Source: Podarcis bocagei
Taxonomy: Eukaryota
DNA length: 64,000 bases
NCBI GenBank assembly: GCA_964188305.1
Contig: OZ076897.1
Direction: 5' to 3' (one strand)
Shown here: positions 2,661-51,408 of the stretch, piece by piece
How the letters are laid out: each line of letters begins with the position of its first letter
How positions within the stretch are numbered: position 1 is the stretch's first letter
Made by a program: the position numbers and the translations under genes
Notes under the pieces: model-generated
Told to the model about the DNA's origin: nothing
Database searches by the model: none
Seen by the model: only the letters and a program-made list of their open reading frames with translations

Positions 2661-3480
2661 TGTTGCGGTGGGGTCTGCTGAGCCACCCCTCTGTTACCAG
2701 GCAGGGTCTCTAAAGATGGCCTGGGGCAGTGATTGGTTCACTGGGTTGCTGGGGTAAAAGTTATGTTGCAATTTTGGTGGGAGGGGTAAAATTTTTAAGT
2801 ACTCTGCACACAGCCTGGAGCTTTCTCTTTGCTGCGTGCAACGGATCACCCACCCACCCGCCCTTAAGTAAGGGGTTGTTGCATTGACCTTGCTATGCCT
2901 GTCATGGGGTCGTCTGCCGTTGGGGCAGGGGCCTGGTAGGAATTTTGTCCATCTGGCTGATTGGCTGGGCCATTTGGTTTTTGCCTACTGTGTAGCAAAT
3001 CGTCACAACTTGTAAGCTTGCGGTTAGGCATTGGTTATAAATTGGTGGAGGAGGGGTTAGGATAGGCTGGGCCTGCCCCTCCATGGAGGGGTTAGGATAG
3101 GCTGGGCCTGCCCCTCCATGGTTGCTGCGGAAAGGGAATTCCGTTAAAGGAATCCTGGGGCTTGCCATCTTTTCGTTCAATCCCTGGAATGGGACTAGGG
3201 CCGGCAAGCCTTCGGGGAGCAGGCGGATGAGAACTGAGGGTCTGTGACTCAGCTCCATTTCTCCCCGACTTGCTTTCCCCCGCACTGTCTTTCGGTGGTG
3301 CCCGGAAGTCAGTTCTGTCCCCAGGCGGGGGGACAGATAGTCTTAACCAATGCCTAAACAACCACTCATGGTTTTGTATTTAAATAAAGTTGTGGCCAAA
3401 ATTATGCCAAAAACCTTAAACAAAAATTAAGTGTGCGTTGTGAGTTATTTGGGGGGTGGCTTGGGGACCTCGACACGCAA
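2661..3480 (+). mobile_element. LTR-like or DIRS/Ngaro-like terminal repeat fragment
   Basis: GC/CpG-richer block with short inverted ends TGTTGCG...CGCAA, AATAAAGTTGTGGCC near 3383 (also seen near 15157) and an internal 35-bp tandem duplication. No clear TSD. Confidence 0.5.
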
Positions 3481-4049
3481 TGAGTACCCTTTGGGTACAT
3501 ATTTCTGCTCACCTCCATGGTGCATGTATAAGAGCACAAAGGGAAAATAAAGTATCTGTATCTTTATATCAGAGGTTCTGGAATAACATGGAATTGCATA
3601 CGTATTGTGTCATATTTCTTAGGTGAAAGCCTCCTGCCACCTGATCTCTGTGAAAACCAGGAAACAGAAGCAGGGGGTGGGGGCAAGAAGGTTGAAATGA
3701 TGCAAATGCAACAGCAGCAGTGCTGGGTGGGTTCAACCAGAGCATTTGCACGAGGCTGACATTCCTTCTGCCCCCCCCTTCCCACCTCCCAGTAGAATTC
3801 AACATAGGACTATGCATGGGACGAAAAGAGATGAACAGAGAGGTATTATTACTTCCCTTGATCTGGACACTAAACTTCGGCTGATGCAGCTTAGAATAGC
3901 ATTAGCCTTTTTTGCTGATGTTTGTGGTCTAGTGCAGTTGAAAAGATTTATGTATGTACGGCTGCTTTATATCCTGCTTATAATCCAACTGGATTCTCAA
4001 AATGCATCATCATAAAGCCACAGGAAAAAGAACTTGGGTTCAAACTGTT

Positions 4050-4225
4050 GGTGAGTGGGAACTTGGGGTCATAATGGATTGCTTGATGAAGATGTCACCA
4101 GCTGTGAAAAATGCAAAATCCATGCTAGGGATTGTTAGGAAAGGAACTGAAAATAAAATTGCCAATATCATAATGTCGTTAAACAGATGAAAGAGGATGG
4201 AGCGACTCTCCTATGAAGAGAGGTG
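4050..4225 (+). mobile_element. Old CR1 ORF2 fragment
   Basis: Encodes ELGVIMD...AVKNAKSMLGIVRKGTENKIANII, the CR1 C-terminal pattern. Confidence 0.6.
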
Positions 4226-4304
4226 AACTGAGTAGAGCACTAAATAAATGCCTGTCATAAATATAAACCTCTATTTCTTTCTATCTATCTATATCTATCT
4301 GTCT

Positions 4305-5376
4305 ATCTATTCTGCTTCATTGACTATGCAAAAGCCTTTGACTGTGTCGACCACAACAAACTATGGCAAGTTCTTAAAGAACTGATCACCTCATCTGTCT
4401 CCTGGGAAATCTCTATGTGGGACAAGAAGCTACAGTTAGAACTGGATATGGAACAACTGATTGGTTCAAAATTGGGAAAGGAGTACGACAAGGCTGTATA
4501 TTGTCTCCCTGCTTATTTAACTTATACGCAGAATTCATCATGCGAAAGGCTGGGCTGGATGAATCCCAAGCCGGAATTAAGATTGCCGGAAGAAATATCA
4601 ACAACCTCAGATATGAAGATGACACAACCTTGATGGCAGAAAGCGAGGAGGAATTAAAGAACCTTTTAATGAGGGTGAAAGAGGAGAGCGCAAAATATGG
4701 TCTGAAGCTCAACATCAAAAAAAACAAAGATCATGGCCACTGGTCCCATCATCTCCTGGCAAATAGAAGGGGAAGAAATGGAGGCAGTGAGAGATTTTAT
4801 TTTCTTGGGCCCCATGATCACTGCAGATGGTGACAGCAGTCACGAAATTAAAAGACGTCTGCTTCTTGGGAGAAAAGCAATGACAAACCTAAACAGCATC
4901 TTAAAAAGCAGAGACATCACCTTGCCGACAAAGGTCTGTATAGTTAAAGCTATGGTTTTCCCAGTAATGATGTATGGAAGTGAGAGCTGGACCATAAAGA
5001 AGGCTGATCGCTGAAGAATGGATGCTTTTGAATTATGGTGCTGGAAGAGACTCTTGAGAGTCCCATGGACTGCAAGAAGATCAAACCTATCCATTCTTAA
5101 GGAAATCAGCCCTGAATGCTCACTGGAAGGACAGATCGTGAAGCTGAGGCTCCAATACTTTGGCCACCTCATAAGAAGAGAAGACTCCCTGGAAAAGACC
5201 CTGATGTTGGGAAAGATGGAGGGCACAAGGAGAAGGGGACGACAGAGGACAAGATGGATGGATAGTGTTCTTGAAGCTACCAACATGAGTTTGACTAAAC
5301 TGCGGGAGCCAGTGGAAGACAGAAGTGCCTGGCGTGCTCTGGTCCATGGGGTCACGAAGAGGCGGACACGACTAAA
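4305..5376 (+). mobile_element. RTE-BovB LINE, 5'-truncated, with inactivating lesions
   Basis: RT motifs FIDYAKAFD, GVRQGCILSPCLFNLY and YEDD (YADD mutated), then RIDAFELWCWKR...WRALVHGVTK. Frameshift in the A-run near 4717-4725 and a stop near 5012. The 3' end runs into the gap. Confidence 0.93.
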
Positions 5377-5576
5377 NNNNNNNNNNNNNNNNNNNNNNNN
5401 NNNNNNNNNNNNNNNNNNNNNNNNNNNNNNNNNNNNNNNNNNNNNNNNNNNNNNNNNNNNNNNNNNNNNNNNNNNNNNNNNNNNNNNNNNNNNNNNNNNN
5501 NNNNNNNNNNNNNNNNNNNNNNNNNNNNNNNNNNNNNNNNNNNNNNNNNNNNNNNNNNNNNNNNNNNNNNNNNNNN
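5377..5576. other. Assembly gap (200 N)
   Basis: Run of N. Confidence 1.
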
Positions 5577-5620
5577 TATCATATATCATCTATCGTCTAT
5601 CATCTATCTATCTATCTATC

Positions 5621-5662
<42 letters not shown>

Positions 5663-5683
5663 ATCTATATCTACCTATCTATC
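5577..5683. repeat. (TCTA)n microsatellite; a similar tract lies at 4270-4310
   Basis: Read directly. Confidence 0.93.
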
Positions 5684-7989
5684 GTGATGTCACAATGTTG
5701 TTGTTATTGCAGTTGGTATCAACGGCATAACAGCAACATCAATTTAGTGCTTAAAACATTATACTAATTACTAAAGTAAAGCAGGCTGATCCTGTAGGGA
5801 ATACATGATATCCCTCGGGAACCTGGGGAAATAGTAAATTTTGTTTCCCAGCACTTGATCATACACCCAAATAGATACCAAAAGCAAGCTGCCTCTATTA
5901 TGCCTGTAGCTCTGCAAGAACTGCACTGCTGTGAGAAGGTGAAGACTGCATTTGTCCGTGGCTGCTTTGTTTAGTTTTTAAAAACCAACAGGCAGATGTT
6001 AGCACTATAAACCGAGTGTCAGGAAAACCTGCTGGCCAAGCGCATGGCACTGGGGAGCAATGCAAGACCTGGGGCTAAATTATTTAACTTGTGTGGAGCT
6101 GAGCAATGTCTTCACAGAGGATATAAAGGCAGCCTCATGAAGGAGCTCAAGCTCTGTGCAGGGAATCCAAGGCTTTCCCTCTCTTTGCACAATCCATCAC
6201 ACAAACAACGTGGCAAACAAAGCAGGAAGACAAGCCCTGGACCAAATTAGAAGAAAACCTTCGGAACATTTCACTAACTGAGTTCTATTAAAGCTTCTGG
6301 TGATCAACAGTTAATTATTTGGTAATAAAACCAAGCAACATAAATATGGAATATATATATTCCATGACAATAAAACCTGTTTGTTGCAAAGGGCTATGAA
6401 CCTGCCATGCAACTGAGAGAAAAAAGTGTGAAGGAAAGAATTTTGGGGTCATTGCCAATCGCAGTATTGTTACTAGGGGGTGGTTATATATTGGTAACAT
6501 CTAGGGAGGAATCAGTCTATTTCAGGTCCATGTGCATTGTGTCACATTGCCACATCAAGTACTTATATTTTATATTTAAAAGCCTATACAAGAATTTGTA
6601 TACTGTATGTATTTTCTCACAAAATAGGCATGTCTAAGCTTATTTTCTCTCACATATGCATTTGTAAACATATTTTCTCATTAAGTATACATTTTAATTT
6701 GTTTTTTCAGTGGAGAACTGACTCACAAAATTTTGAAAAGTACAAGATCCAAAGGGCAGCTGTCTTAGTCCAGGAGTTACAGATCAGATGGCTGCAGAGT
6801 GGGATTTGCACAGAACAAATTCCTCAGGCATCCCTAATAATACCTGCAGGAGGTGACAATTCATGGTTGCACCTGACTGTGCAGACAAAGTTGTAATCCA
6901 GCAAGTTGATTAAAATTCATTTAGACTCCAGATTGTTTCTTTCTGCAGATTGCCAACACCAGTCCATCGTAAAGACTAAAAGCGGTGTATCTCTTCCCAT
7001 CTCTGCCAGTCTCTGCAGTTGGGCCCCCGGAATAAAGTCTTCCAGGACCATGTTGGGGGCAGACCAAGTACCCGCCACACACATCCCAAATGGGAAGGAA
7101 GTCTGCCCACTTGGGGCTTGCATGTTTATTTGAATTCTGATTCGGTCAAAAACAAGTGGATTTTAAACAATACAGTTCTATATAATAATGTTATATATGG
7201 TATGTCAAAATATGGGGAAAGGTTATGAGCCCAGCAGGTCTTTGGAGCTGGTGGTTTGGAGGACTGCTGTGTGAGACTCTCTACATTCTGCCCTTCATTC
7301 AGTGCTGCTGCTGATGAGAGGGAGAGCTTAGTCAGGTAGCAATTTTTTATATTGGGTCACTTGCACAAGCAAAATGTAAAAAAGTTTGTATTTTGCAAAA
7401 TACTATTTTAAATCTATATTGACTTGCTTGTGAACTATATCTGGAAAAGAGCTGATGGGAACATTTATATTTCGCATGCAGGAGTTTATATTTGATTAAT
7501 CCATTTTCCTCCTGGACATTCTGTGGTAGACTCCAAAGTAGCCTTAGAACATATCAGCAACTTCAGACAATCTTTGCAAACTAAGGGAGGTCATTCAATT
7601 AAGGTTGCCAAGGTCGTTTTGGTCTTTCCTGAAGATGCAGCGTTGTTTTTGAGTACCTGTGATCAATATATTTGACACGTTTAACATTTCAAAAGTGCAC
7701 CTAAAAAATTGTGTATTTTGAGTTCATTTTGGTTTATAAGCATTTTTCTCTTCACTTGCCCTTCTGGATAGCTACCATATCCAGTATCCTTAAAAATGCA
7801 TCATTCTCCCCAAATGTTAAGAATTTTATGTTGTAAACCATCCTGTGATCTTTGGACGAAGGGCGGTATATAAAATAAATAAATAAGGTTTTTGTTAGGT
7901 CCCGTTAAACACATCCATTGTAACATTTGCTTGCATCCATCTCATAAGGACTGATACTTTTAATTTCAGTTCCAGTGCTTGACTTTGCT

Positions 7990-17062: not shown

Positions 17063-20000
17063 TCATAGAATCATAGAGTTGGAAGAGACCACAAGGGCCA
17101 TCGAGTCCAACCCCCTGCCAAGCAGGAAACACCTTCAGAGCACTCCTGGCATATGGTTGTCAAGCCTCTGCTTAAAGACCTCCAAAGAAAGAGACTCCAC
17201 CACACTCCTTGGCAGCAAATTCCACTGTCAAACAGCTTTTACTGTCAGGAAGTTCTTCCTAATGTTTAGGTGGAATCTTCTTTCTTGTAGTTTGGATCCA
17301 TTGCTCCGTGTCCGCTTCTCTGGAGCAGCAGAAAACAACCTTTCTACCTCCTCTATGTGACATCCTTTTATATATTTGAACATGGCTATCATATCACCCC
17401 CTTAACCTCCTCTTCTCCAGGCTAAACATGCCCAGCTCCCTTAGCCGTTCCTCATAAGGCATCGTTTCCAGGCCTTTGACCATTTTGGTTGCCCTCCTCT
17501 GGACACGTTCCAGTTTGTCAGTGTCCTTCTTGAATTGTGGTGCCCAGAACTGGACACAGTACTCCAGGTGAGGTCTGACCAGAGCAGAATACAGTGGCAC
17601 TATTACTTCCCTTGATCTAGATGCTATACTCCTATTGATGCAGCCCAGAATTGCATTGGCTTTTTTAGCTGCCGCGTCACACTGTTGGCTCATGTCAAGT
17701 TTGTGATCAACCAAGACTCCTATATCCTTTTCACATGTCACCCATGTCAAGCCAGGTGTCACCCATCTTGTATTTGTGCCTCTCATTTTTTTTGCCCAAG
17801 TGCAATACTTTACATTTCTCCCTGTTAAAGTTCATCTTGTTTGTTTTTGCCCAGTTCTCTAATCTGTCAAGGTCGTTTTGAAGTGTGATCCTGTCCTCTG
17901 GGGTGTTAGCCACCCCTCCCAGTTTGGTGTCATCTGCAAATTTGATCAGGATGCCCTTGAGTCCATCATCCAAGTCGTTGATAAAGATGTTGAATAAGAC
18001 CGGGCCCAAGACAGAACCCTGTGGCACCCCACTAGTCACTCTTCTCCAGGATGAAGAGGAACCATTGATCAGCACCCTTTGGGTTCGGTCAGTCAGCCAG
18101 TTACAAATCCACTGAGTGGTAGCATAGTCAAGACCGCATTTTACCAGCTTCTTTACAAGAATATCATGGGGCACCTTGTCAAATGCCTTGCTGAAATCAA
18201 GGTAGGCTACATCCACTGCGTTCCCTTCATCTACCAGGCTTGTAATTCTGTCAAAAAACGAGATCAGGTTAGTCTGACATGACTTATTTTTCAGAAATCC
18301 ATGCTGACTATTGGTGATCACAGCATTCCTTTCTAGGTGCTCACAGACTGTTTGCTTAATGATCTGCTCCAGAATCTTCCCTGCTATTGATGTCAGACTG
18401 ACTGGGCGGTAATTATTTGGGTCCTCTCTTTTCCCCTTTTTGAAAATAGGGACAACATTTGCCCTCCTCCAGTCTGCCGGGACTTCGCCTGTTCTCCAGG
18501 AATTCTCAAAGATGACTGCCAGTGGTTCTGAGATCACATCTGCCAGTTCTTTTAATACTCTTGGATGCAGTTCATCTGGCCCTGGAGACTTGAATACATC
18601 TAAACTGGCCAAGTATTCTTGTACTATCTCCTTAGTTATTCTGGGCTGTGTTTCCTTTGCTGAATCATTTGCTCCAAATTCTTCAGGTCGGGCATTGTTT
18701 TCCTTATCGGAGAAGACTGAGGCAAAGAAGGCATTGAGAAGTTCAGCCCTTTCTGTGTCCCCTGTTTGCATTTCACCATCTTCTCCTCTGAGTGACCCCA
18801 CTGTTTCTTTGTTCTTCCTTTTGCTACGAACATACCCATAGAAGCCTTTTTTGTTGCTTTTAACCTCTCTAGCAAACCTGAGTTCATTCTGTGCTTTAGC
18901 TTTTCTGACTTTGTGTCTACACGTGCTGGCTATTTGTTTGAATTCCTCTTTGGTGGTTTCTCCCCTTTTCCATTTTTTGTACACATCCTTTTTTAATCTT
19001 AACTCAGTTAAAAGTTCATTAGATAGCCACCCTGGCTTCTTTAGGCACCTTCCATGTTTCCGTCTCATTGGTATTGCCTGAAGTTGTGCTTTTACTATCT
19101 CCCTCTTAACAAACTCCCAGCCATCATGAACTCCCTTTCCTTTTAGTATTACTGTCCATGAGATCTCACCCAGCACTTCCCTAAGTTTTATGAAGTCGGC
19201 TTTCTTAAAGTCAAGAAATTGAGTCCTAGTATGCTTGGCTGCTCCTTTCCGCTGTATAGTAAACTTCAGAAGAGCATGATCACTCGCGCCTAATGATCCT
19301 TCCACTTCTACCCCACTAACCAGGTCATCAACATTGGTTAGGACCAGATCTAAAATGGCTGTTCCTCTTGTTGCTTCTCCCACTTTCTGGACAATGAAGT
19401 TGTCTGCAAGGCCAGTGAGGAATCTGTTTGACCTTATGCTCTTGGCTGAGTTTGACATCCAACAAATATCCGGGTAATTGAAGTCCCCCATTACTACTAT
19501 CTCCCTTCCTTTTGCATGCTTGGCCATCTGTTCCAGGAAGGCATCATCTATGTCCTCCGTTTGGCTTGGGGATCTATAGTAAACTCCCACAATGAGGTCT
19601 CTGTTATTCTTCTCTCCCTTAATTTTGACCCAAATGCTCTCACTTTGGCTTTGAGGTTCTAAATCTTGGATCTCTTCACAGGTATACACATCCCTGACAT
19701 ATAACGCCACTCCTCCTCCTTTCTTGTCTGGTCTGTTTCTCTGAAATAGATTGTATCCCCCCATTATTACATTCCAATCGTGGGACTTATCCCACCAGGT
19801 TTCAGTGATGCCTATTATGTCATATTTAGTTTGCTGTACCAAGAGCTCAAGCCCATCTTGTTTATTTCCCATGCTTTGCGCATTAGTGTACAGACATTGA
19901 AGTCCATTAATCATTCCCCCGTGTCTCTTATTTAAGGATTTTTTCCTCCCACCACTAGGTCTGCGTGCTGTTTGCTCCATTTGGTCTATGACATTTGGAT

Positions 20001-20431
20001 GATCATCTTCATCAATTGATAGACTCCTACCTTCAGGAGCACTGTCTCCCTCCCCCACATTAGTCAGTTTAAAGCCCTCCTGATGAGGTTTCTGAGATTT
20101 TTGGCAAAAACATTTCTCCCAACTGTTGTGAGGTGCAGCCCATCGCTTGCCAGAAGTCCATCTTCAAGAAACTGCAGTCCATGATCTAAGAATCCAAACC
20201 GTTCCTATTTACACCATTTGCGAAGCCAACTGTTCACTTCCACTATTTTTCCCTCTCTCCCTGGGCCACGTCGTTCAACTGGAAGGACAGATGAGATGAC
20301 AATTTGTGCATTTAGTTGCTTCAATTTCCTGCCAAGAGCCTCGTAGTCTCTTTTGATCTTCTGGAGGCTATTGCTTGCAGTGTCATTGGTTCCCACATGA
20401 ACCAAGAGGAAGGGGTCTTTATTGACCCCTT
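17063..20431 (-). mobile_element. Young CR1 LINE, 5'-truncated within ORF1, ORF2 nearly intact
   Basis: ORF1 SGNH esterase remnants LLVHVGTND and DGLHL. ORF2 endonuclease motifs YTNAQS, GITETW, MGDFN and SDH. RT motifs YRPVSLTS, YLDFSKAFD, GVPQGSVLGP and FADD. 3' UTR with (ATTCTATG) tail at 17063-17076. Confidence 0.97.
17731..20058 (-). pseudogene. CR1 ORF2 (APE endonuclease + reverse transcriptase), 775-codon open frame, frameshifted near the C terminus
   Basis: ORF-track protein with all catalytic motifs. The continuation [11 protein letters not shown]...[11 protein letters not shown] lies in another frame (17394-17786). Confidence 0.92.
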
Positions 20432-26831: not shown

Positions 26832-27230
26832 TCAAGGGACTCAGACCTACTGGGGAAGTACTGGGAAGATCCCTCCCCATTTCCCACAACATTGTAAATC
26901 TCGGTCTTCTGTTGACTGGAAAATGACCCAAAGGACGGAGGAAAATAACTCTGAGTTCTTAAGCTCCTTAGGGGAATCAATGAGCTCCACTGTTGATTGG
27001 GAAAGAACCTTGCAAACCGATTCTGGTTGTCCATGCAGGCATGGAATTCACTGTGGTGTATCTGAATGGAGAAAAAGTCCAGATTTCTAACATTAAAGGG
27101 AGGTATTTTTCAGACTCCTTTCTCTGTTTCTAGGGGACTGCTGAGCCCCAGCTGGTACAAGCTACTTCTGTTGCTAGCACTGCAAGAAAATGGCCCTAGC
27201 CTTATCTGCACTAAATGTTAAAGGAAGCTG

Positions 27231-29289
27231 TAGGATCCAATAATAAGGGGACTTCCGCCGCAGCGAAGGTGGGGACCCGCTAGAAATCCCAGGCGGAGGA
27301 AGCCTGGGAATGTGGGGTTCAGCAGGGCACCAGGAGTGCCCCCTACTCACCGGGAACCCCTTTTTGGGGCACCGGAGCGAAGTGGGGTGAGTGGCGCGGT
27401 GCTGCGAACTGATTGCTATTTTTACGGAGTGAAGCCGCACAGCCATTGCCGGAGAGCGCTGACTTTTTCCTGTGGACAATTGGATTCAAAACAAGTACCC
27501 GTGAGTAGAAACGGAAAATTGGATCAAGAAATATCTTAATTTGGCATCGAAGCGGGAAGGTTCAAAACAGGAAGTCCGCCTTCCGCTTTTTGTATATAGA
27601 CTAAAGCAAAAACTTTGTAAGCTAAAGCCTGGAAAGGTGTGAAAAAAGTCTAATTTCCTTCATTTATAATTACTGAAACCCCCTTGGAAGTAGGAGAAAA
27701 GGGGGGAGAACTTTGTTTAACCCCTGCAGGAGAGGGAGAGAAGAAGGATAAACTTCCACCGTCTCTAACCTGGGAACGGGGTGTCAGAGACAGAAATAGT
27801 TGGAAAGGTTCATTGACTGTGAATGGAACATTTTGACAGATAGCTAAAGAAGAGAAATAGACTGATTCCAATGTTGCCTTTTGCATTCTAAAGAAACAAA
27901 ATATCTGAAAAATATCTGAAAAATGAAAGTAATTTTCCTTTGTTGGACTTGCCTTAAAAAAATGGATACAAATAGAAATTGCCTCCCCTAGAGGGAGCTT
28001 GTTAAATTGTTGCTGCAGTTTACTTGAGGACTCAACAGCTGTGAGATTAAGATCGTGGGTCCAGTCTTTTCTGACTTTGACTAAAGATGAGCTGGGAGGA
28101 AGATTGGGTGCTTGCTTTATGCAAGACAAGTGCTTTGCTGGAACAGATGCACGAGAAGATGGATTTGATGAATGAGAAAATGGACTTGATGACTGTTGTG
28201 GTTAACAACTGTGGACAAACAGGGAATATTGATACAGAAACTATTCAGGGACCAACTCAGGAACCTGTACTGACTGGGCAAGTGCAGAAGATAATGGAGG
28301 AGGATGCGGTTGCACCTCAAATAATACAAATGGAGAAACCCGAGGCCCTACAGGAGTATAAGCCGCTGTCATTGAAGATTGAAGTTGGAGTGGGCCAGGG
28401 GGAGTCTGGAGCTGAGGAGGGTCCTAACTTTGGAGAGACCTTGAAATATGTTTTTAAATATTTTTTGGATTACATTGATGACTGTGGGGAGTGGGGCTGT
28501 GGGGAATGGGCGGGTTTGATGAAGGGAGATGGAGACAATTTTGGGTTGGAACCCCCCAGAGACCTACTCCTCAATGAGAAAGGAAAGAAATTAAGAAAGA
28601 GACCAACAAATGACAAGGAAAAGGGCAAGTATAAACAAGAAGAAGATCTGCAGAAGGGACATGGAAGAGACTTAAGGGCCTCGGACATTAGATTACCAGG
28701 TTGATGGACTAGATGGAATGGACAGTAAGGACTGACACGACCCGAGACCAGGAAGAAGAGACGTTGGATGAAGATTGGAAGAAAATTTATAAAGAAATTT
28801 TTTTATTTGGGGAATTAGCCTAAAATCAATGAATATTAAGGAAAATGTTGGAATGAAACTATATGACTCTAGCAGAAATGATATTAGGGGTTATGTATAT
28901 TTGAGTATTAAGATTCAAGCTTTAAGGTACTTTATGGTAAGATAAGGTTAAATAAATTAAGGTAATTTGAATAACAGAATAGGTTAAATTGTTAAGATAA
29001 ATTATTTAACAAAAATTGAGAAAGATGGAAAGAATTTGCTGAAATAACGAATTAAACTAGAATACAAAAAGGGAGGTGTGAGGAGGTCAATGAAACAAGC
29101 AAATGGAAGTTAAAGATATGAAATTTGGGATTTGTGTCTTTTTTATTTTTTTTGTTGTATTGCTTGCTGTATTGGTTTTTATGTTTTGCGCTTTTTCTTC
29201 TTTTTTATGTGTTGTAGTGTTGTTGTTTTTGCTATTTTTTCTTTTTTTCTATTACTCTGAAACTATGAAAAAATATTATTTTTTAAAAA
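27231..29289 (+). mobile_element. Full-length non-autonomous L1-like retroelement (about 2.06 kb)
   Basis: Perfect 18-bp TSD AAATGTTAAAGGAAGCTG at 27213-27230 and 29290-29307. 5' GGGGACTTCCG with a CpG-rich leader, A-rich body, T-rich 3' UTR and short A tail. Confidence 0.85.
28087..28704 (+). CDS. 205-aa ORF inside the L1-like element; coiled-coil-like N terminus, acidic middle, basic C terminus; function unknown
   Basis: True ATG start (aaagATGa), uninterrupted frame on the element's sense strand, heptad pattern LLEQMHEKMDLMNEKMDLM. Confidence 0.5.
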   Translation: MSWEEDWVLALCKTSALLEQMHEKMDLMNEKMDLMTVVVNNCGQTGNIDTETIQGPTQEPVLTGQVQKIMEEDAVAPQIIQMEKPEALQEYKPLSLKIEVGVGQGESGAEEGPNFGETLKYVFKYFLDYIDDCGEWGCGEWAGLMKGDGDNFGLEPPRDLLLNEKGKKLRKRPTNDKEKGKYKQEEDLQKGHGRDLRASDIRLPG

Positions 29290-29632
29290 AAATGTTAAAG
29301 GAAGCTGAAATATTTGTTAATCCCTCATTATGATGTTATAGTAACTCCTAAAATATCACTGATCAGCAACCAGACCTTCCAACATGACACAAAACAGCCC
29401 GGGTCAGATGAGGAACAAGAATGTGATTTAGATACTTCAGTAAGTTTTAATTTACAAAATAAATAAATAATCTATAGCAGCATCTCACTATGATGGAAAC
29501 ACCAGTGGAAGGACTGGTTAAAGCACCCCAAATATAATAGCCAGGAAAATCATTAGCAGATATCACTGGGGAAGGAGCAGAGCAAGAGCAAGGCATGCTG
29601 CTCATTCATATCCTTTTCAAAACTAGTTGAAT

Positions 29633-40734: not shown

Positions 40735-42148
40735 AAAAACCATCTTTAGATGCGGCCAATATGGCCAACGATTGCCCAGTCTCAAATCTTCCATTCTTGG
40801 GCAAGGTGATTGAGCGGGTGGTTGCTGAACAACTCCAGGCACGCCTGGAAGAAGTGGACCATTTGGATCCCTTCCAGTCAGGATTCAGGCCTCACCATGG
40901 GACTGAAACTGTCTTGGTCACTCTGGTCGATGATCTCAGGCGGGCTAGGGACAAAGGTGAGAGCTGTTTCCTAGTTCTGCTGGATCTCTCAGCGGCTTTT
41001 GATACCATCGACCATGACATCCTTCTGGACCGTCTTGAGGGGCTGGGAGCTGGGGGCACTGTCATACAGTGGTTCCACTCCTTCCTCCTGGGCCGTGTTC
41101 AGAAAGTGGTGGGCTCTCACTTGTGGGGTGCCTCAGGGTTCTGTCCTCTCCCCCATGCTTTTCAACATCTACATGCAGCTGCTGGGAGAGATCATCAGGG
41201 GGTTTGGGCTGGGTGTTCATCAGTATGCGGATGATACCCAGCTCTACCTCTCTTTCAAATCAGAACCAGTGAAGGCAGTGAAGGTCCTGTGTGAGTGTCT
41301 GGAGGCAGTTGGAGGATGGATGGCGGCTAACAGATTGAGGTTGAATCCTGACAAGACAGAAGTACTGTTTTTAGGGGACAGGAGGCGGGCGGGTGTGGAG
41401 GACTCCCTGGTCCTGAATGGGGTAACTGTGCCCCTGATTCTGGACTCACAGCTGTCCATGGAGGCACAGGTCAATTCTGTGTCCAGGGCAGCTGTTTATC
41501 AGCTCCATCTGGTATGCAGGCTGAGACCCTATCTGCCCACAGAGTGTCTCGCCAGAGTGGTGCATGCTCTAGTTATCTCCCGCTTGGACTACTGCAATGC
41601 GCTCTATGTGGGGCTACCTTTGAAGGTGACCCGGAAACTACAACTAATCCAGAATGCAGCAGCTAGACTGGTGACTGGGAGTGGCTGCCGAGACCATATA
41701 ATACCGGTCTTGAAAGACCTACACTGGCTCCCAGTATGTTTCGAGCACAATTCAAAGTATTGGTGCTGACATTTAAAGCCCTAAACGGCCTCGGTCCAGT
41801 ATACCTGAAGGAGCGTCTCCACCTCCATCATTCTGCCTGGACACTGAGGTCCAGTGCTGAGGGCCTTCTGGCGGTTCCCTCGCTGTGAGAAGCCAAGTTA
41901 CAGGGAACCAGGCAGAGGGCCTTCTCAGTGGTGGCACCTGCCCTGTGGAACGCCTTCCCACCAGATGTCAAAGAGAAAAACAACTACCAGACTTTTAGAA
42001 GACATCTGAAGGCAGCCCTGTTTAAGGAAGCTTTTTTTAAAAAAAGTTTAATAGGTTATTGTATTTTGGTGTTCTGTTGGCAGCTGCCCAGAGTTGCTGG
42101 GGAAACCCAGCCAGATGGGCGGAGTATAAATAAATTATTATTATTATT
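40735..42148 (+). mobile_element. L2 LINE, 5'-truncated, RT domain with internal deletions
   Basis: PVSNLPFLGKVIERVV, DPFQSGFRPHHGTET, LLDLSAAFDTIDH, GVPQGSVLSP, HQYADDTQLY, RLDYCNAL, LHWLPV; (TTA)n tail. Confidence 0.95.
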
Positions 42149-48014: not shown

Positions 48015-48190
48015 GAAGAACCACAGCTTAATGGCAAAGAACATTGTATGCATGCAAAAGGTCCCTGCTTAAATCCCCAGTTTTCAAAATAGGATCTGGC
48101 AACAGACATCTGTGCCTAAGATTCTGGAGAGATACTGCAACCCTGGGCTAGATGAACAAATAGCCTGATCTGGAGAAGCCATGTTTTTAT
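48015..48190 (+). mobile_element. Decayed tRNA-derived SINE (Squam2-like)
   Basis: A-box-like CAGCTTAATGGCAAAGAAC and B-box-like GGTCCCTGCTTAAATCCCCAG, followed by CTGGAGAGATACTGC...TAGATGAACAAAT. Confidence 0.45.
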
Positions 48191-48269
48191 GCACACCATT
48201 TCACACCAAACATGAACAAGTTGTGATCCCCAGGTTGAACGCAGACCACAGTGTGAAGAAGACAGAGAA

Positions 48270-49610
48270 GTGCTATTGGGTGACAGGGAGAAGGTGGAAC
48301 TGCTCAACACCTACTTTGCCTTGGTCTTCACCCCAAAGCGATGCCCAGCCTGGTGATAAGAGAATAAATGATGTAAGGAGGGAGCTGCAGCCCAACATAG
48401 GAAAAGAGGTGGTAAGGAAACACCTAGCTGCTTTAAATGAATTCGAATCTCCAGGGCCAGATGAGCTGCATCCAAGGGGACTAAAGGAACTTGTGGATGT
48501 AATCTCAGAGCCTCTGTCTATAATCTTTGCAAATTCTTGGGGAACAGGTGAGGCCCCTGCAGACTGGAGGTGGACAAATATCCCCATCTTAAAAAGGGAA
48601 GAAAAGGAAGACCCAGGTAACTACAAACCAGTGAGCTTGACTTCGATACCAGGGAAGGTCCTTAAACAGATAATTCAGAAAAGGATGCTCTGATTACTAA
48701 GACCCAGAATGGGTTTCTCAAAAATAAGTAGTGCTAGATGAATCTGATTTCTCTTTTTGATGGAGTTACATGCTTGCTAATCCCCCCCCCCCACAGGGGG
48801 ATGCTATGGACATAGTGTATCGTGATTTTAGTAAGACTTTTGACAAAGTTCCCCATGATATTCTTGTGAGGAAGCTGGTAAAATGTGCGTTGAATGAGGT
48901 AACTGTTAAGTGGATTTGTAGCTGGTTGACTGACTGAACACAAAGAGTACTCATTAAGAGTTCCTTGTCATCCTGAAAAAAGGGGACAAGTGGGGTGCTC
49001 CAGGGTTCTGGAATGGGGCCCATTGTTGTTCAATATCTTTATAAAAAAAATCCAATGCTATTCTAGGCTGCATCAACAGAAATCTAGTGTCCAGATCAAG
49101 GGAAGCAATAGTACCGCTCTATTGTGTCTTAGCCAGACCACACTTGGAATACTGTGTCCAATTCTGGCACCACAATTTAAGATAGATATTGACAAGCTGG
49201 AATGTGTGCAGAGGAGGGAAACCAAGATGATCCACGGTCTGGAATCTAAGCCTTACAAGGAGCTCCTGAAGGAGCTGGGTATGTTTAGCCTGGAAAAGAG
49301 GAGACTGAAAGGAGATATGATAGCCATCTTCAAATATCTTAAGGGTTTGTTTTCTCCTGCTCTGGGCGAGTGAATCTAATGACTTCAGGTTACAAGAAAG
49401 GAGATTACAACAAAACATAAGGGAAAACCTCCTGACAGTAAAAGCAGTTCGACAGTTGAACGATTTCCCTCGGGAGGTTGTGGACTCTCCTTTCTTAGGG
49501 GTTTTTTAAGCAGAGGTTGGATGGCCACTGGATGGATGCTTTAGCTGCATAGCAGGGGGTTGTATTAGATACACCTTGGGGTCCCTTCCAACTATGGTTC
49601 TATGATTCCA
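48270..49610 (+). mobile_element. Older CR1 LINE ORF2/3' fragment with stops and deletions
   Basis: SPGPDELHPR, DPGNYKPVSLTSIPGK and [14 protein letters not shown]; 3' terminus GGTCCCTTCCAAC...TTCTATGATTC. Confidence 0.92.
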
Positions 49611-50579
49611 TTAATAAAAGTGCATTAGAAGTAAATTTTCAGCATTATGTAGCCACAATTTTACAAATATAGGACTGATTTAAGAAGTCTCTTTCGGAGC
49701 TGTTCATCAGTTCCATCAATATTCCATTATTATGGGAATTGATGGAATTTAAAGGGCAAAGTTAACAGCAGTCTACACAAATGCAAACAACCTTCAAAGA
49801 GCTTTTTTTAAAAAAAAATCAACAACACAATTATCATTTCAATGTGCTACACTTTTGTTCCTGTAATAGAAGCTGGTTCACAAATAATCCCAATTTCACC
49901 ATTTAATTCAGGCTATGCAGCTTCTTTATTTTTAACAAAGCCATTGCTTTTGCAAGTTACTTAACCACTTGTGACACCTATGGTTCTAATTCACCTTTCT
50001 AAGAATATAGTCACAGATACAATATTGTCATGGTAACAACTATACCCCAAACAACCCCTATTCACCATTACTGTAGGAGCTTAACATATACCCAACAAAA
50101 TTCAGGATTTTTTATGGATTTGCAATGCATTGAAAGTCACAACTACAGGAAGCTACAAAGGAAGTGGGGATGAAGATGTGGGCTGCTTGAGAAGTTCACC
50201 TCATTTGCACATCACATAAAACTATAGTTTAAAATGAACTATGGTTTAATATGAACGAACATTGTGTTGGTTGACTCTTCTCTTGCTCCTGTTACACATT
50301 AAATAAGCAGAGTTTAGCTTGCTGTGTTGTCTGAACCCAGGCTCATAGTTTCTCTCCAAACAAATCAGGGAGGATACTTTCCTAGCATATTGCCAAGCAC
50401 TCACAAAGGACAGATATAGCAGTCATGGGAGGCTTCAGCTACCCAGATATGTGTGGGAACTCAAGCTTTGCCAAGAATGTAAGGTCCAACCAATTCCTTA
50501 ACTGCCTTGCTGACAATTTCATTTCCCAGTAAGTGGAAGAAGCAGCAAGAGGGTCATCTCTCTTGGATCTCACCAACAG

Positions 50580-51159
50580 GTTGTTGTTGTTTAGTTTAGT
50601 CATGTCCGACTCTTTGTGACCCCATGGACCAGAGCACGCCAGGCACTCCTGTCTTCCACTGCCTCCAGCACTTTGGTCAAACTCATGCTGGTAGCTTTGA
50701 CAACACTGTCCAACCATCTCGTTCTCCGTCCTCCCCTTCTTGTGCCCTCCATCTTTCCCAACATCAGGGTCTTTTCTAGGGAGTCTTCTCTTCTCATGAG
50801 GTGGCCAAAGTATTGGAGCCTCAGCTTCAGGATCTGTCCTTCCAGTGAGCACTCAGGGCTGATTCCCTTAAGAATGGATAGGTTTGGTCTTCTTTCAGTC
50901 CATAGGACTCTCAAGAGTCTCCTCCAGCACCATAATTCAAAAGCATCAATTCTTCGGCGATCCGCCTTCTTTATGGTCCAGCTCTCACTTCCATACATCA
51001 TTACTTTTATGGTCCAGGTCTCACTTCCATACATCACTACTGGGAAAACCATAGCTTTAACTATACGGACCTTTGTTGGCAAGGTGATGTCTCTGCTTTT
51101 TAAGATGCTGTCTAGGTTTGTCATTGCTTTTCTCCCAAGAAGCAGGTGTCTTTTAATTT
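50580..51159 (-). mobile_element. RTE-BovB LINE 3' fragment with (CAA)n tail
   Basis: IKRHLLLGRKAMTNLDSILKSRDITLPTK...WRALVHGVTKSRT; tail ...AAACAACAACAA. Confidence 0.94.
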
Positions 51160-51408
51160 TGTAACAGCAGTCACCAACAGATAGAAGCTGAATTCTCAAC
51201 TTGTGTGTGTGAAGGGAGCAGGCCAGACACGTCCCCATAAATTTAGCCTCCCAACTAGGCTGCCTCTTAATAATGCAAGTGAAAATGTTTTCCACCCATT
51301 TCCATTAGATAATATAGCTTGAGCAGTACTGTGAATTTTTAGTCTTTCAATTCAATTATCTTAAATTTGTGGTCTTAAATGCAAATGAGTGGCATCCAAT
51401 GAAATGTG

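Follow-up and report, generated by a model that had tools for sequence, protein, structure and literature searches.

A half-L1-like family of non-autonomous retroelements with a reduced ORF1p and a conserved C-terminal tail in Podarcis lizards

The insert at positions 27231-29289 of the window (the whole 64,000-nt stretch of Podarcis bocagei DNA analysed) belongs to a multi-copy family of ORF2-less L1 derivatives with their own L1 leader and a retained ORF, as the family copies, leader comparisons and ORF comparisons agree and as the first-pass annotation had proposed. This half-L1 family is real, abundant, young and recently active, and with it the range of half-L1 elements comes to include squamates. 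In the literature searched, no account of a lizard half-L1 was met; the search lay outside Repbase, Dfam and subscription journals, where such families may be recorded. The element is very probably a HAL1-like, non-autonomous L1 parasite copied in trans by the ORF2p of a clade-1 helper, a conclusion drawn from the target-site duplications, the A tail, the parentage described below and established L1 biology. According to that biology, transcription would start from the L1 leader and the helper ORF2p would perform target-primed reverse transcription.

The 2,059-bp insert is bracketed by an exact 18-bp direct repeat (27213-27230 and 29290-29307), as previously reported. An empty site was found in one of the four runs examined (X16, organism D), where 27212 is followed directly by 29290 in a contig and 18 letters agree with either side; this identifies the repeat as a true target-site duplication. 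In another of these four runs (X13), a contig extended out of the flank and into the element, where it carried 12 leader bases that the window copy lacks. At least one further organism label has the insertion as well, and a different one does not have it. CNTNAP2 exons (aa 225-472) were located on the minus strand, at 55.7-64 kb of the window, and no further CNTNAP2 exon was found within the 64 kb. The element had been described as antisense to this gene; the strand of the exons agrees with that description, and the element would then occupy an intronic, antisense position.

The window copy, read on the plus strand, begins with 16 bases (27231-27246) that are absent from the other family copies. 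These are followed by a 5' leader (27247-28086) that derives from a clade-1 L1 and likely holds an internal Pol II promoter. As had been noticed from the sequence, the leader is CpG-rich (CpG observed/expected ratio of 0.76 in the first 270 bp, versus 0.22 in the ORF). The copy had also been called complete, which it is not: about 70 leader bases were lost near 27256, and in 27 of 30 family copies the 5' end lies about 70 bases beyond the point at which the match of this copy begins. The first bases of the family leader are present and are followed by the deletion, which lies between two near-identical 9-mers and is private to the window copy in the genome G000 (two matches, the window and one undeleted copy). 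A splice-donor-like motif (27498-27506) is kept in most lineages, namely in the leaders of A, B, C and G, and in the partner L1. A short palindrome (27985-27995), located about 100 nt before the start codon, is also shared by most lineages and the partner L1. No GT..AG joint was found among the 15 listed of 19 joints for contigs from four putative-RNA runs of another organism; contigs of these runs covered 28 of the 30 bins of a full copy.

The single ATG-initiated ORF (28087-28704, 205 aa) encodes an ORF1p derivative without an RRM and with a net charge of -14. From the N terminus, it is composed of five heptads that represent a remnant of the ORF1p coiled coil (aa 5-39; 28099-28203), as indicated by profile, model and periodicity; a remnant of the last RRM strand and the CTD (aa 114-191; 28426-28659); and a conserved C-terminal tail ending in RxPG-stop (28660-28704), with a possible 7-bp hairpin at 28677-28702. 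No endonuclease or RT coding sequence is present in the insert, and the 3' end is T-rich with a short tail of 5 A, in agreement with the earlier description. The ORF is followed by decayed last codons of L1 ORF2 (28702-28850) and by a 3' UTR (28851-29289) containing duplicated ORF2-end pieces, the T-rich tract and the A tail. Motifs resembling the end of ORF2 had been pointed out earlier. Their ORF2-end origin was upheld; the main remnant at 28702-28850 had been missed, and the motif cited at 28851 belongs to another, duplicated part of the ORF2 end, which by eye matches the partner L1 at 20 of 23 nt.

Among 5,276 candidates in G000, the 40 that were scored (lineage A) were 88-97% identical, excluding the window copy, and mostly spanned nearly the whole insert. 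Copies with a like structure and distinct duplications, for which the first-pass annotation had proposed a search, were recovered: 23 of 30 fetched copies were flanked on either side by an exact duplication of 11-21 bp specific to the copy. A full-length ORF was retained in 23 of 30 lineage A copies; neutral decay of young copies predicts an intact fraction of 0.72 at 1.25% change, and A copies differ by 2-3% from their nearest neighbour. Lineage B, reached via related proteins, comprised 150 scored matches of about 2.1 kb, with duplications in 19 of 20. Lineage C (1.84 kb) was discovered inserted in an L1; its 40 scored copies were 94-100% identical, at least 15 of them about 100% identical across nine contigs, which indicates its youth, and the ORF was intact in 35 out of 35. 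Copies of A and C were picked by DNA (23/30 and 35/35 intact), whereas those of B were picked by protein similarity (37/40 intact), which biases their intactness. One lineage C copy (L087:6958-8795; compare L101-L115) interrupts the final codons of an L1 ORF2 that is intact apart from this insertion. Further lineages were E, a large F group and G. In total, at least five lineages of 1.8-2.1 kb each were distinguished, with the same layout in the other lineages; their proteins are 19-43% identical, and the leaders and 3' ends of A and B are 69-72% identical at the DNA level.

The ORF protein matched "hypothetical" proteins of Podarcis, and the annotation of Podarcis lilfordi lists family copies as hypothetical genes (P0001-P0003, P0010 and P0138), so that some hypothetical proteins of Podarcis genomes are explained as transposon products. 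Full-length L1s and identical parasite copies were strongly concentrated on one contig of G000 (C19), a pattern expected of a low-recombination or sex-limited chromosome.

To what extent the frame has been maintained was visible from indels. In 12 representative pairs, which are mutually dependent and were chosen intact, 14 of 18 ORF indels were multiples of three, versus 16 of 100 in the leaders, and the other four formed compensating pairs. The proportion of intact ORFs in lineage A, close to that predicted for neutrally decaying young copies, would be compatible with a one-off, internally deleted L1 whose ORF is open by chance. Such an origin is refuted by the independent duplications at dispersed copies, the existence of at least five lineages, the frame-keeping indels and 1,202 exact matches in G000 to a degenerate 29-nt pattern of the tail (control, 0), and can hardly be maintained.

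The parentage of the element was traced through a truncated L1 end in L095, which led to full-length L1s (L125, L134 and L176-L195). The 5' terminus of these partner L1s fits the lizard clade-1 consensus given in PMC5381506. Identity to the window copy was 62-65% over about 500 nt of the leader and 66-75% at the ORF2 end; over the leader and the ORF2 end with the 3' UTR it reached 62-79%, which is also the level of the closest helper found. The partner ORF1 profile matched human ORF1p structures (E 1e-10). Against a profile of 16 partner ORF1s, the window ORF scored 23.6 bits, versus 2.6 for the best of 300 shuffles, and the match comprised two blocks in collinear order, one in the coiled coil and one in the CTD, the RRM being absent (profile positions ~141-245 unmatched in lineage A). 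No match was obtained between the window ORF and 15 ORF1s of other L1 groups. Residues 142-191 were 40% identical to the clade-1 ORF1p of L178, up to the residues just before the tail; L178 (oriented 2678 onward) is itself a nested clade-1 L1 of a further family, and its ORF1p CTD is the closest match to the lineage A remnant. Finally, L216 (64.6 bits) is an intermediate in which the first half of the RRM is kept and the founding deletion, of about 40 residues, is visible. The profile match, the CTD identity and this intermediate therefore indicate a gutted ORF1p of a clade-1 L1 from the same genome, and not the orphan ORF initially described; nor is the product a coiled-coil-only protein, as lineage A also keeps the CTD remnant. 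Taken from these comparisons, the leader, the ORF and the ORF2 3' stub all derive from a clade-1 L1.

Several other searches bear on this parentage. Twenty L1s that were first taken by RT score belonged to other groups, had no match to the ORF and were rejected as parents. Pfam provided no family for the ORF, and the partner ORF1s matched nothing there beyond coiled-coil noise; PF02994 was matched nowhere in G000 nor in controls, so its absence is uninformative. The tail may have arisen from out-of-frame ORF2 sequence, with which its alignment was collinear but weak and not significant (56, versus a shuffle maximum of 52). A six-residue match to the tail in L134 was dropped, being located in an unrelated insert. 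At L095:2693-7580, the final codons of a partner-type L1 that lacks its 5' part are interrupted by a full-length L1 of another group.

Across the lineages, the proteins keep the frame, a length of about 200 residues, the five N-terminal heptads and the terminal tail, and sequence comparison points firmly to selection on frame, heptads and tail. Selection on the rest of the protein was examined by comparing dN/dS for shared and private variants, a procedure by which recurrent CpG changes are scored as shared. In lineage A, dN/dS was 0.42-0.47 for shared variants versus 1.0-1.1 for private ones (p 0.013). It was 0.58-0.65 in lineage B (p 0.19) and about 1.0 in lineage C, and selection on the protein body is therefore weak or absent outside lineage A. 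The a/d positions of residues 5-39 were 70-100% hydrophobic in all 23 representatives. Heptad periodicity reached p below 0.05 in 13 of the 23, lineage A not being significant (p 0.13-0.24). The AlphaFold model was confident only near a helix at residues 3-42 (mean pLDDT 45.6), and the CTD remnant was unfolded in it. In an atlas comparison made with P0001, the best score (0.86) was below the bar.

It had been suggested that the protein could co-assemble with L1 ORF1p. A predicted complex with two helper coiled coils scored 0.40, versus 0.00 for the best control, with runs agreeing in at least 77% of contacts and partner pLDDT of at least 66, which lends the suggestion weak support. Passes this low were obtained for 5 of 78 solved pairs and for all four mismatches that passed. 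A like trimer has been solved, and the score of the modelled complex may reflect likeness to that trimer.

These features can be set against those of mammalian HAL1, a non-autonomous L1 derivative that encodes only ORF1p and arose several times in mammals, according to PMC5753468, PMC2241872 and PMC8535693; rat HAL1 is described as 98% identical to active L1. The lizard family shares with mammalian HAL1 (Smit 1999; Bao and Jurka 2010) its non-autonomy, an L1 leader, one ORF1-derived ORF, an L1 3' end and poly(A)/target-site duplication, and differs from it by the deleted RRM, the acidic protein, lineages that are only 19-43% identical, and a new conserved tail. We found the absence of ORF2 endonuclease and RT, the L1 5' UTR and 3' end, the ORF1-derived ORF, and copies with their own duplications and A tails. 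An ORF1p with an RNA-binding RRM-CTD was not found, half an RRM being present only in L216; for this reason, the family can be classed as HAL1-like at the element level and not as a canonical HAL1. With respect to lizard L1 clade 1 (Boissinot and Sookdeo 2016), the 5' terminal motif, the leader of about 0.9 kb, the ORF1p coiled coil and CTD, and the ORF2 end are shared, whereas the parasite has no endonuclease, RT or intact RRM. HeT-A and Ag-Sponge also possess a single ORF1-type protein proposed to multimerise with that of the helper, as stated in PMC5786205; however, they belong to the Jockey and CR1 clades, while the lizard family belongs to the L1 clade, is dispersed and has lost most of ORF1p.

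In that source, HAL1 is counted among the ORF1-present bipartite LINEs, a group in which the encoded proteins probably form multimers with those of the helper; in the portions of the literature examined, a reason for the retention of ORF1 was proposed and no test of it was met. The function proposed for HAL1 and HeT-A, in which the protein binds its own RNA in cis and forms multimers with the ORF1p of the helper, might apply to the lizard protein as well. The layout matches that of ORF1-present bipartite non-autonomous LINEs, as described in PMC5786205 and PMC2241872, and lineage A keeps the basic CTD remnant. However, the RRM is deleted, the net charge is -14 versus +1 for helper ORF1p, the CTD remnant is unfolded in the model, and its basic stretch is absent from lineages B, F and G, all of which makes this function improbable. 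As the protein is acidic and without an RRM, RNA chaperoning seems unlikely, and the two conserved ends are read as its working parts.

The most unusual feature of the protein, the C-terminal tail, is invariant across lineages with otherwise barely alignable proteins and had been missed in the first-pass annotation, which had otherwise described the heptads, an acidic middle and a basic end. Its consensus across lineages is L[RK]ASD[IV]RxPG-stop. Since intact A and C ORFs and most intact B ORFs were called with the tail pattern, tail conservation was counted only in sets not chosen by tail, in which a terminal RxPG was present at 26 of 28 loci and in 12 of 16 database proteins. Identity between lineages was 0.70 in the last 15 columns, versus 0.12-0.43 elsewhere. 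The Arg is kept via AGA, AGG or CGG codons and the stop via TGA or TAA. The Ala, Ser, Pro and Gly codons, in turn, vary only in ways that preserve a 7-bp stem, and fourfold sites were more conserved in the tail than in the body (0.75 versus 0.53); part of the constancy of the tail may therefore lie at the RNA level.

The selected item might even be the RNA itself, a bulged hairpin ending at the stop, together with translation as such, the peptide being largely a by-product. Across 21 sequences, 98.6% of the cells pair within the 7-bp stem, versus 15-59% in slid controls, the Ser codon is TCG, with its CpG, in 127 of 133 tails, and lineage C shows the dN/dS of about 1 given above. Nevertheless, three pairs exhibited one-sided changes and none of the seven a compensatory double change, a stability above that of synonymous shuffles (p<0.05) was seen in no more than 4 of 24, and the loop Arg, the stop position and the heptads are kept at the protein level. 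We consider such an RNA-based role fairly unlikely.

The tail also fits C-terminal degron motifs, namely RxxG within 0-3 residues of the end or a terminal -PG. The protein would then be made and destroyed, either sparing helper ORF1p from a poisonous coiled coil or dragging ORF1p to the proteasome and freeing ORF2p. Its terminal RxPG fits both the -PG motif of KLHDC10 and the RxxG motif of APPBP2 (CRL2-KLHDC10 and CRL2-APPBP2), and the variable position of the tail coincides exactly with the free one of these motifs (PMC7458402 and PMC10614623); truncated ORF1p suppresses L1. This putative function leaves unexplained the equally conserved upstream L-x-A-S-D; moreover, APPBP2 prefers one or two residues after the Gly, and the motifs come from human cells. 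A degron thus seems a rather unlikely role for the tail. No report of an APPBP2/KLHDC10-type degron on a retrotransposon protein was met in the literature searched.

We tentatively favour another role, in which the short protein would act, not as an RNA-binding chaperone, but as a ribosome-held hook tying its mRNA to the L1 particle. The ribosome would pause at PG-stop with the nascent chain still on the tRNA, and the exposed N-terminal coiled coil would join helper ORF1p oligomers. The stall would keep hook and mRNA joined and thereby replace the lost RRM, and the middle of the protein would be mostly spacer. By analogy, when the last Pro of a 2A peptide is replaced by a stop, ribosomes stall, peptidyl-tRNA is retained and release is blocked (PMC3326317 and PMC12846837). 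In a likeness that was noticed after the fact, the tail shares with StopGo/2A sequences (R/K)DL, three residues, D[IV] and then PG, one 2A class starting with (R/K)DL and having [DG][IV] at an equal distance from it (PMC12846837); unlike them, it is one residue shorter, has no E, has N only in C-like lineages and has a stop for the Pro. None of the 140 proteins matched the 2A core (D/G/C/N)(V/I)ExNPG-P, and register shifts are described in PMC12338488 as abolishing 2A activity. Truncated human ORF1p works in trans by way of its coiled coil and suppresses L1 (PMC5605252), and the lizard protein could for that reason equally be an inhibitor. The stall, degron, hairpin and classical HAL1 readings are mutually compatible.

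L1 proteins act preferentially in cis, and Alu circumvents this preference via SRP. The combination of a coiled-coil hook with a new, 2A-like arrest peptide acting at the stop might constitute a third way past the cis preference, beside the Alu SRP route and the RNA-binding ORF1p of HAL1, which we regard as a doubtful but conceivable possibility. If true, a vertebrate genome would naturally encode an arrest of termination at PG-stop. The lizard radiation resembles a natural deletion scan, in which only the frame, the length, the five heptads and the 12-residue tail were held in at least five lineages. It points at the minimal parts needed by a protein-coding parasite and provides three separable hypotheses, the stall, the degron and the hairpin.

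A different deletion derivative was observed in L120 (oriented 2885-5266; ORF at L120:4440-5249, minus strand), in which an ORF1 coiled coil continues in frame into a part of ORF2 from beyond the RT (P0007; 270 aa, and 340 aa in Podarcis raffonei). The leader of this derivative shows 66% identity to that of family A, and the RxPG tail is absent; it is possibly a second half-L1 lineage. Elsewhere in the window, an element with an open frame of 810 codons was observed at 17397-20163 (minus strand), which we take to be CR1-like from its resemblance to such elements, as well as presumed RTE-like and other LINE fragments at 4378-5764, 40737-41766, 48169-49370 and 50442-51304. A run of N was present at 5377-5576.
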